Virus genome (UHGV): UHGV-1780165
Strand: one strand, 5' to 3'
DNA length: 34,785 nucleotides
Origin: a virus
Shown here in pieces: positions 24,716-26,381 of the stretch (positions are counted from its first letter, which is position 1; every line of letters starts with the position of its first letter). The translations under genes were made by a program, and so were the position numbers. The notes beneath the pieces were generated by a model. The model was given only the letters and a program-made list of their open reading frames with translations, did no database searches and was not told the origin of the DNA.

Positions 24716-24912
24716 ATGTGTAAAAAACGACTGAAAGAAAAGCGGTGGTCCAGACGCCGACAAAAGCACGAACTCGCAAACAAACGCCAAAGTTGGCAAT
24801 GGCACGCGCTTTTCACGAAAAGAACACCCCGAGATATTGCGTTCGCTGGTGGGAAAACATTCCTGACCCACCTGAAGGCGCAATACATCAGGTTTTAAGC
24901 AGAGGAAAGACT

Positions 24913-25563
24913 ATGAATAACATGACAACGAAAGAGCTTTTGACGGCACTTCCAAAATACAAAAGCCATAAAACAGTTCGCGCCTCAAAAATCAAAGATA
25001 TCGAAATTATCGCCCTAATGGATGTGGTCCTTTTTTGCAACATCGAAGTCGTTGAGCCAGAAGGGGTAAAAGTCCATGTTGATAAAATATTTTTGCAAAA
25101 ACACCGACCAGAAATTGGCGGATATCTGGTCGCTTATGAGGACGGATCTCTGTCCTATTCACCAGAAAAAACATTTGAAGAAGGCTTTAGTCGGACTAAC
25201 GACTTCTTCGAAAATGGGGTATCGCTCAGCATTGAAGGTCACAATGGGGTGACATTCATTACAGCCAGGGACGTAACTATTTCTGCTGGCGGTATCGCTA
25301 CTCTACAAGAAGAAATCGACCTTGAAGCAGCCGACTTCTCTGATGCGCTAATGTGGTTGAAGGAAGGCAAGAAAGTTGCCCGACGCGAGTGGAAAGGCGA
25401 AAAGCAATTCTGCTGGTTAGTTCTCGCTGGAAGCGTCAATTTACACGGCATTCACGTTCCTTATGGTGACCATTTTGTATTGAAAGATGCACAAAATATG
25501 GACAGCGTTTGGTTGCCGTCTGTGGATGATTTACTGGCCTGTGACTGGTTTGTTGTGGAGTGA
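24913..25563 (+). CDS. two-domain protein with C-terminal DUF2829 (Tad2-like) domain
   Basis: ATG 24913 with GAGGAAAG RBS; C-terminal ~75 aa FSDALMWLKEGKKVARREWKGEK...VWLPSVDDLLACDWFVVE fits the DUF2829 pattern as recalled. Confidence 0.6.
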   Translation: MNNMTTKELLTALPKYKSHKTVRASKIKDIEIIALMDVVLFCNIEVVEPEGVKVHVDKIFLQKHRPEIGGYLVAYEDGSLSYSPEKTFEEGFSRTNDFFENGVSLSIEGHNGVTFITARDVTISAGGIATLQEEIDLEAADFSDALMWLKEGKKVARREWKGEKQFCWLVLAGSVNLHGIHVPYGDHFVLKDAQNMDSVWLPSVDDLLACDWFVVE

Positions 25564-25569
25564 TTTAAC

Positions 25570-26352
25570 GTGGAAAATACTAAAGCAATTCAATACCGCC
25601 TGCGTAATGGTCAGAGTGTCGAAGTGACCATCAATAATGATGGTGTGCCTGGCGAAAAGGTTTCGATCTCTGATCTGGCTATCGAAAAAACCATCATGTG
25701 CCACCTTGGCTTTACTGAAGAAGTGAGCAAAAAGCATGGTGTAGCAATCTGGAGCGCAATGGATACTGGTATGCGCAGATTCATTACTGCTCGTACCCCA
25801 GGGATGACCATGATGGACCTCATGCAGATTGCGCCGCTGTTTGAATGTGAGCCTTTAGATGTATTCAGCAATCCAGCTATCTGCCAGCAGCTATATGGTG
25901 AGATGAAACTCGCGGTTACCCCTATTGTGCTGCATGAAGGATCGCTTGCTGGCGTGTGGAAAGTGGAGCGTATTTCAAGCTACATGCCTTTCCATGTCAA
26001 CGGCGTAATCACTGGTGAAAATCAACCTGTTTCCGTTATAAAGTCAGACCTCAAGCGCGCAATTCTTGAAGCAAGTTGTCGAGTTGTCGGCCTGGGCAAA
26101 CAGTCTTATGTTTCCTTCCCGGCTGGCCCTGAAGGCCCGGCAGAAATTCTGATTATGGATGCCGATCTGCTCTGGCAAATACAGTTTCTGATTGGCAAAA
26201 GCATCATCCGCGCTGAAGAACTCGATCAGTACATTACCTGCACGATGACGGATGAAGTCAAAAGTGTGGCTATAGCCAATGCCCGGAACCTATGTCGTGC
26301 TGCATTAACAGAACTGCAAGAAAACACCACGGAAGAAGTGGAAAGCGATTAA
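25570..26352 (+). CDS. hypothetical 260-aa protein
   Basis: GTG start 10 nt after GGAG, 6 bp after the previous stop; followed by a strong terminator. Confidence 0.55.
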   Translation: MENTKAIQYRLRNGQSVEVTINNDGVPGEKVSISDLAIEKTIMCHLGFTEEVSKKHGVAIWSAMDTGMRRFITARTPGMTMMDLMQIAPLFECEPLDVFSNPAICQQLYGEMKLAVTPIVLHEGSLAGVWKVERISSYMPFHVNGVITGENQPVSVIKSDLKRAILEASCRVVGLGKQSYVSFPAGPEGPAEILIMDADLLWQIQFLIGKSIIRAEELDQYITCTMTDEVKSVAIANARNLCRAALTELQENTTEEVESD

Positions 26353-26357
26353 AAAAA

Positions 26358-26377
26358 ATCCCGCCGACTGGCGGGAT
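26358..26377. terminator. bidirectional intrinsic terminator ATCCCGCC-GACT-GGCGGGAT
   Basis: 8-bp stem flanked by A8 upstream and TTTCTTC downstream, between convergent genes. Confidence 0.8.
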
Positions 26378-26381
26378 TTCT

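Follow-up and report, generated by a model that had tools for sequence, protein, structure and literature searches.

A predicted Tad2-family fusion gene and an isaA orthologue in the ssb-hxr slot of a P1-like phage-plasmid

The virus genome UHGV-1780165, whose 34,785 nucleotides (nt) are referred to here as the window, represents a P1-like phage-plasmid (Punavirus). Its interval between ssb and hxr had been described in an initial annotation, made from the sequence alone, as holding two uncharacterized genes and no IS1. We consider it likely that this interval is the RD-2 slot of P1-like elements and that it forms an early, C1-repressed unit composed of ssb, a spacer, a gene encoding a Dec-like module fused to a Tad2-type sponge, isaA, and a terminator. 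The two genes lie on the plus strand at 24913-25563 (gene 1, 216 amino acids, ATG start) and 25570-26352 (gene 2, 260 amino acids, GTG start), where they had been placed from the outset, and are set 6 nt apart. Neither of them, however, is uncharacterized: gene 1 encodes a protein with a PF11195 domain and gene 2 is isaA of P1. The accessory cargo in the slot is of a type already known rather than a new system; the Dec-like fusion adds some novelty. The whole region is 100% identical to CP115328.1, a plasmid of an Escherichia coli isolate from dog urine, and the same arrangement is present in Salmonella phage SJ46 and Escherichia phage Ro157c2YLVW.

RESULTS

The C-terminal domain of the gene 1 product belongs to the Tad2 family

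Residues 137 to 216 of the gene 1 product (25321-25563, plus strand) matched the Tad2-like profile PF11195 over positions 2 to 73 of 73, with a score of 66.7 bits (curated cut-off of 25; E value of 2.7e-18). End-to-end sequence matches were obtained with ModTad2 (8.8e-11), the Tad2 structure 8v3e (1.1e-10), and SPO1 Tad2 (5.8e-6), and the predicted structure of the domain matched the Tad2 fold, consisting of helix alpha1 plus an antiparallel beta sheet. By sequence and fold, the gene 1 product is a member of the Tad2 (Thoeris anti-defense 2) family. The residues of SPO1 Tad2 that bind the ligand include W25, W73, S76, and D79 (bioRxiv 10.1101/2023.05.01.538930); these are W160, W200, S203, and D206 in the gene 1 product. 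Across 40 homologues, W160, W200, and D206 were invariant and S203 nearly so, and the tetramerization helix alpha1 (EIDLEAADFSDALMWLKEGK) was almost invariant as well. Known members of the family (SPO1 Gp34.65, ModTad2, and HgmTad2/AcrIIA7; PF11195/DUF2829) are single-domain proteins of about 90 amino acids, whereas the gene 1 product carries a 136-residue N-terminal extension.

The C-terminal domain would oligomerize and capture ADP-ribose signals of TIR origin, be it gcADPR, His-ADPR, or a related nucleotide, and sequestration of the signal would keep Thoeris-type effectors from being switched on. We infer this sponge function from the family, whose solved members act alone. The initial proposal of a cargo or anti-defense module agrees with these findings for gene 1, a Tad2-family gene in a variable slot; for gene 2, it is a guess from the neighboring genes only. 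As the name AcrIIA7 implies, a DUF2829 domain could instead be read as an anti-CRISPR. We regard this as extremely improbable here, given that 3'cADPR and cyclic dinucleotides are ligands of HgmTad2, a homologue from metagenomes, and that E. coli and Salmonella are not known to possess type II-A CRISPR.

The segment that follows strand beta2 varies within the family and among P1-like elements. In SPO1 Tad2, it provides helix alpha2, the V-shaped dimer interface, and in ModTad2 and HgmTad2 it shapes a second ligand pocket. At least three alleles of this segment occur among P1-like elements, and the allele found in the window is the shortest of them.

The N-terminal part resembles the decoration protein Dec

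No Pfam model covers residues 1 to 136 of the gene 1 product. A profile built from 20 such N-terminal parts, however, matched the decoration protein Dec of phage L with an E value of 3.6e-7 over 110 residues. The match comprises an OB-fold domain (residues 1 to 97; 24913-25203, plus strand) and runs into a beta-rich linker or stalk (residues 98 to 136; 25204-25320, plus strand) as far as Dec residue 121, which is only the start of the Dec spike. Both proteins therefore share an N-terminal OB fold with a recognizable sequence motif, followed by a beta-rich segment like the start of the spike (Dec, PDB 6e3c; PMC6449081). They differ in that their identity is only about 24%, that the Tad2 domain stands where the end of the Dec spike would be, and that gene 1 is part of an early operon rather than of a head module. 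In Dec, the spike part lacks order as a monomer and takes up its fold upon trimer formation (PMC6449081), and residues 98 to 136 may, judging from the alignment and the model, form a trimeric stalk. The Dec-like OB fold and stalk constitute an added module, for which we propose, speculatively, oligomerization or tethering as the most likely role.

The OB domain was present in 36 phage records. Ralstonia phage GP4 encodes a stand-alone homologue of 91 amino acids (gp05, 2486-2761 of its record) in its head module, between portal/gp06 and the major head gene; in the capsid structure published for GP4, the cement protein is a different one (gp1). In the Pseudomonas phages Dolphis and Jeremy, genes for OB domains are annotated as "capsid decoration protein," and the architecture of an OB domain joined to Tad2 also occurs in the Klebsiella phages SopranoGao and LASTA. 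These relatives, together with the homology of the N-terminal 120 residues to Dec up to and including the start of the spike, would fit a gene 1 product that is a component of the virion, that is, a Dec-like decoration or cement protein whose DUF2829 head serves particle stability or adhesion. We nevertheless judge this very unlikely. A late or structural gene context would be expected of a Dec-type protein, whereas gene 1 stands behind ssb and a C1 operator in an early unit with no late promoter context, and it is absent from P1 and from numerous relatives whose virions are normal. Moreover, the Tad2 ligand residues are invariant among the homologues of gene 1, and a dUTPase takes the place of the OB domain and stalk in some P1-like elements, joined to Tad2 at the same linker.

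One such dUTPase-Tad2 fusion (P0090, 241 amino acids) was found on E. coli contigs of up to 88 kb and is joined at the same GGITTQQEEIDLE linker. In another protein (P0071, 306 amino acids), an N terminus with a tail-fiber repeat (PF03406) is joined to a partial OB-stalk-Tad2 sequence. The stalk itself exists in two allelic versions that recombine freely with the flanking domains, and the Tad2 fusion as a whole is put together, mosaic-like, from interchangeable alleles of the OB domain, the stalk, and the loop. The dUTPases are normally trimeric enzymes. Because a putatively trimeric stalk is fused to a head predicted to tetramerize, and because a trimeric dUTPase takes the same position in natural fusions, the Dec-like tripod could make a higher-order or capsid-associated sponge. 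This idea belongs to a wider reading of the slot as a modular anti-defense cassette, in which IsaA and an orphan protein of 364 amino acids, encoded behind isaA in some relatives, would be new inhibitors and the spacer would encode a basic microprotein coupled to ssb. The targets of these two inhibitors may be other host defenses or defenses that sense sponges. We consider the cassette as a whole unlikely.

Several observations speak against the reading that we prefer, that of an early unit built around a Dec-like/Tad2 sponge and isaA. Contacts of SPO1 Tad2 are changed in the gene 1 product (N26 to K161, T78 to D205, T65 to D192, D67 to Q194, and H71 to S198), adenine-side contacts among them, so that at the sequence level the core of the pocket is kept and residues on the specificity side are altered. 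The connection between beta2 and beta3 is about 8 residues shorter than in the solved Tad2 proteins, and the monomer model of this allele has no alpha2 helix; since this helix forms the dimer interface, the assembly may differ. Given the substituted pocket positions and the shortened loop, more than one ligand is conceivable. Residues 98 to 136 were modeled at low confidence (predicted local distance difference test [pLDDT] score of 44-51, short predicted strands), a value that matches a Dec spike part folding only in the trimer, and a trimeric stalk on a tetrameric Tad2 domain would create a symmetry mismatch. Finally, the co-transcription of both genes with ssb, described below, is deduced solely from the absence of predicted signals.

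Gene 2 is isaA, and gene 1 lies directly upstream of it

Alignment of the window to P1 (NC_005856) placed the body and the flanks of isaA alike in both genomes, and gene 2 is on these grounds the sequence orthologue of P1 isaA. Window positions 24100-24916 correspond to P1 ssb and the next 200 nt (99% identity), 24917-25573 have no counterpart in P1, 25574-26352 correspond to the body of isaA at P1 21747-22531 (93.5% nucleotide identity), and the sequence from 26384 on corresponds to P1 hxr. Gene 1 is an additional gene located exactly between a shared ribosome-binding site (RBS) with its ATG and isaA. The P1 copy of this RBS and ATG opens isaA directly, and IsaA begins with MTAQNTKTIQY... there and with MENTKAIQY... 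in the window. Downstream of isaA, P1 has an additional AT-rich segment with isaB, and IS1 lies within this segment. Its flanks carry the 9-bp target duplication TGCCCTCTG, and we therefore read the IS1 of P1 as a simple insertion. P1 thus differs from the window by the missing Tad2 gene, by isaA being joined to the shared RBS and ATG, and by the extra AT-rich, IS1-bearing isaB segment.

When P1 IS1, the isaB segment, and the pre-IS1 spacer were compared with the window by blastn, no match to IS1, its inverted repeats, insA/insB, a transposase, or isaB was found in 24716-26380, and isaB with its AT-rich segment was wholly absent from the window. The possibility that both genes are the isaA and isaB orthologues with merely IS1 missing applied to gene 2 and failed for gene 1, which is not isaB. 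Similarly, the claim that IS1 is lacking stood for the interval and not for the element. Window positions 1-110, the sole IS1 match in the window, correspond in reverse orientation to a 110-nt end of IS1 at 97% identity and adjoin sequence equal to P1 86014 onward (lxr/humD side). Given this IS1 end, the element carries IS1 at another variable region, where it is cut by the edge of the window.

The gene 2 product showed 95-96% amino acid identity to clusters of proteins of 262-264 amino acids and matched phrog_2326 at 1.5e-149. No motif had been recognized in it initially, and profile and structure searches bore this out: apart from phrog_2326, IsaA had no match in PDB, Pfam, NCBIfam, or PADLOC, and its sole match among viral predicted structures was a P1 fragment of IsaA itself. 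In PADLOC and NCBIfam, there was likewise no match for the Tad2 fusion, Hxr, or the product of the 60-codon open reading frame (ORF) discussed below. The AlphaFold2 model of IsaA had a pLDDT of 87 and a predicted template modeling score of 0.83. HMMER, run exhaustively against 1.84 billion representatives, returned no more than 30 relatives; the identity of the remote ones was 19-33%. All relatives are acidic (isoelectric point [pI] of 4.4-5.1), and their tails are disordered and either acidic or rich in proline. Among relatives from IMG/VR, which also gave the corresponding value for gene 1 below, the ratio of nonsynonymous to synonymous polymorphism (pN/pS) of isaA was 0.14, which indicates strong purifying selection. 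IsaA is therefore a conserved acidic protein that is restricted to P1-like elements and often travels with a Tad2 gene. In P1, isaA is dispensable for lytic growth (PMC10695390).

Other candidate identities of IsaA were rejected. A paralogy with P1 Mat, considered on account of the post-cre position of the remote relatives, received an hhalign probability of 0.1%, and the 173-amino-acid gene upstream of these remote homologues gave no alignment with Ref. As for a nuclease, considered in the form of the PD-(D/E)xK core fold with its D...(D/E)xK catalytic motif, there were weak fold matches only, and no catalytic motif was found. Scans of viral contigs gave one locus only for the remote homologues, and a 16-sequence alignment was too divergent for a pattern search.

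The Tad2 gene and isaA are frequently, not obligatorily, linked

We counted 80 IMG/VR loci that carry a relative of IsaA. Fifty-eight of them are at the ssb site, 23 with the Tad2 fusion upstream and 35 without it. The remaining 22 lie at a second site (c1-cre-...-dut-Tad2-IsaA / doc-phd) and have the Tad2 gene directly upstream in 22 of 22 cases, so that Tad2 and IsaA are adjacent in 45 of 80 loci across two different sites. The initial annotation had called the two genes a compact pair, and the recurrence of their order and 6-nt gap at the cre-dut locus supports this in part. The second-locus proteins are only 59% (Tad2 fusion) and 49% (IsaA) identical to those of the window, and the spacing and the RBS segment are nevertheless kept.

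These features raise the question of an obligate two-protein unit, with IsaA as a partner, a regulator, or a second-stage inhibitor that is effective only in the company of the sponge. The constant order, the 6-nt gap, the Shine-Dalgarno sequence of isaA inside the upstream gene, the persistence of this arrangement at the cre-dut locus despite the divergence, and the presence of the pair in 22/22 cre-dut and 23/58 ssb loci all favor such a unit. The pair is not obligate, however, since P1 and 35/58 of the ssb loci have isaA without Tad2, and remoter homologues of IsaA (23-30% identity) follow a cre-110aa-173aa gene series without any Tad2 gene. In addition, solved Tad2 proteins need no partner, and the two genes have evolved very differently: the pN/pS was 0.48 for the Tad2 fusion, against 0.14 for isaA. 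We therefore hold an obligate unit to be rather improbable. Our most likely guess is that IsaA has an independent anti-defense or host-takeover role, because its linkage to Tad2 is frequent and non-obligate and because the slot lies between two Dar operons.

Both pN/pS values indicate that the two genes are real. The pN of the Tad2 fusion was 0.081, compared with 0.006 for ssb, i.e., 13 times the amino acid diversity, and this high pN, together with the three loop alleles, suggests the signature of an arms race. Among complete E. coli genomes, 427 of 5,426 matched the gene pair, which puts the occurrence of P1-like phage-plasmids at ~8%, and 116 carried both genes, almost all of them on plasmids of ~90-97 kb. 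In 32/80 loci, at both sites, IsaA is followed by the orphan gene of 364 amino acids, which overlaps the isaA stop (e.g., in locus L007 and at 4000-5094 of L006). This gene is absent from the window. Pfam and PDB searches with its product were empty, as was a Pfam search with IsaB.

True gene starts and a candidate 60-codon ORF in the spacer

The 197-nt spacer between the ssb stop and ATG 24913 (24716-24912, plus strand) is conserved and has a counterpart in P1 (21540-21740, 99% identity), where it is annotated as the beginning of isaA. In the P1 record, isaA begins at a GTG 30 nt after ssb and encodes 320 amino acids (YP_006486.1, P1_gp017). P1 isaA and gene 2 are alike in their placement with respect to ssb, the spacer, and hxr; the annotated P1 protein differs in length from the conserved protein, which has 260-264 amino acids. 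Most of the 25 distinct natural spacer variants, including ones that precede a Tad2 gene, have internal stops in the annotated frame, the NCBI Prokaryotic Genome Annotation Pipeline (PGAP) calls IsaA at 262-264 amino acids, and protein clusters of these lengths have 803 + 704 members, versus 15 for the 320-amino-acid form. For these reasons, the sequences indicate that the annotated start in P1 is overextended, that the true starts in the window are 24913 and 25570, and that the spacer is not translated in the P1-annotated isaA frame. The long, P1-style IsaA was rejected on account of the stops in relatives. A 272-amino-acid version of gene 1 from GTG 24745 was likewise rejected; the in-frame extension upstream of 24913 contains stops in five Tad2-bearing relatives (L011, L013, L020, L037, and L049). 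The Tad2 gene of the dut locus begins with the same MNNM immediately after the dut stop. Furthermore, a Shine-Dalgarno GAGG with its ATG (24902-24915, plus strand) is common to the first gene of the cassette, and an identical TTAAGCAGAGRAAAGACTATG is found before the Tad2 gene of the window, before isaA of P1, and, at the second locus, before the Tad2 gene that follows dut.

The description of the spacer as an untranslated leader of about 200 bp thus probably holds as far as isaA and Tad2 are concerned, and overlooks a conserved 60-codon ORF in another frame (24716-24898, plus strand; predicted pI of 11.7). We asked whether it could be a real basic protein, translationally coupled to ssb, which would raise the number of genes in the unit from three to four. 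Its ATG directly adjoins the ssb stop (TGAATG), and it is intact at a fixed length in 23 of the 25 distinct variants despite a divergence of up to 9%. The 5-nt indel of the spacer is located just before the ATG and therefore outside the ORF. The pN/pS of its frame, 0.61, is the lowest of the three (0.84 and 1.73 for the others), and the variable columns are distributed over the codon positions as 13:4:12. On the other hand, a ratio of 0.61 means weak constraint, PGAP makes no call here, and we found neither a Shine-Dalgarno sequence nor a family match nor a homologue outside the spacer. Two of the 25 variants disrupt the ORF, one by truncation and one by deletion of the start; in the latter (L053, IMGVR_UViG_3300014523_000004), the first ~100 nt of the spacer are deleted, and the RBS and ATG of isaA are kept. 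On balance, the protein is no more than a candidate and, in our estimate, less likely than not. An RNA element in the leader was also considered and rejected. There was no Rfam match, the z-score of the fold was -2.1, and the most frequent substitution, G to T at 24841, breaks the main hairpin.

Expression signals and neighboring features

The promoter region of ssb contains a C1-repressor operator, ATTGCTCTAATTATTTT (24191-24207, plus strand), with 2 mismatches to the consensus. It is the equivalent of Ossb/Op21 and is collinear with the annotated P1 Ossb (21015-31). Allowing up to 3 mismatches, we found 7 C1-operator-like 17-mers in the window, against 0.18 expected by chance; they start at 3371, 7645, 8109, 8192, 10229, 20341, and 24191. 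An operator before ssb implies early expression and repression in the lysogen. The ssb gene itself (24227-24715, plus strand; Pfam SSB, 7e-40) is 99% identical to P1 ssb and has a pN/pS of 0.12. The starts of the genes from ssb to isaA are coupled or near-coupled; a GGAG 9 nt upstream of isaA overlaps the 3' end of the Tad2 gene. Since no plus-strand terminator or promoter was predicted between ssb and 26353, ssb, the Tad2 fusion, and isaA would be carried on one transcript from the C1-repressed ssb promoter, and the unit would be silent in the lysogen and switched on at once upon infection or induction.

The strong bidirectional terminator that had been proposed at the end of the pair was confirmed as a predicted intrinsic terminator on both strands. 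Its hairpin (26353-26382; 13-nt arms, 4-nt loop) occupies the entire 29-nt gap between the convergent isaA and hxr. The folding free energy was -17.1 kcal/mol on the plus strand and -22.6 kcal/mol on the minus strand, and 0 of 200 shuffled sequences folded as well. The minus strand has a T8 tail, and the plus strand has merely TTTCTTC, for which reason the hairpin is strongest as a terminator of hxr. The latter gene (26382-26693, minus strand; phrog_2292; named after the P1 annotation) is 97.6% identical to P1 hxr and opens the conserved backbone with the anti-restriction operon hxr-ddrB-ddrA-darA-hdf. The slot is thereby positioned between the darB-ulx and ddrB-darA anti-restriction operons.

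Two further regions of the window differ from P1. At RD-1 (11617-12924), 1.3 kb stand in place of IS5 and the type III restriction-modification genes res-mod of P1 and contain one ORF of 346 amino acids (11832-12872, minus strand) with a DUF2971 domain (Pfam, 4.8e-6). The cin invertase region (34143-34670) is ~70% identical to P1 and inverted, and the flanking backbone is 97% identical.

DISCUSSION

The slot between ssb and hxr is known as variable region RD-2 or region 2 of P1-like phage-plasmids and has been described as a hot spot (PMC6906374, PMC9603915). In this published work, one ORF of plasmid pTZ20_1P "interrupts isaA" and one "replaces isaB." These studies concern the same slot (isaA-IS1-isaB in P1); they differ from our analysis in that the inserted ORF was not assigned to Tad2 or Dec and the misplaced start of isaA went unnoticed. 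A DefenseFinder survey of 2025 reported Tad2/AcrIIA7 at a frequency of 56% among P1-group phage-plasmids and of 93% among those of the D6 group (10.1101/2025.09.12.675607), and databases name the gene 1 product "DUF2829 domain-containing" or "Tad2 family." In view of this survey and these names, the anti-Thoeris assignment was already known. In the searchable literature, we found no description of the Dec-like module, the two-locus Tad2-IsaA cassette, the misplaced P1 isaA start, or the 60-codon ORF.

Our results do not overturn the current understanding of these elements. A predicted Tad2-type sponge in this slot helps to explain how P1-like elements establish themselves in hosts with TIR-based immunity. 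P1 is a workhorse among phages, and the laboratory phage, which lacks the Tad2 gene, may therefore be a poor model for this trait. The corrected start of isaA and the conserved, structurally orphan IsaA family provide a defined target for functional screens. Lastly, the fusions of Tad2 to Dec-like and dUTPase modules, together with the three alleles of the pocket loop, constitute a natural series in which the evolution of sponge specificity and assembly can be followed.

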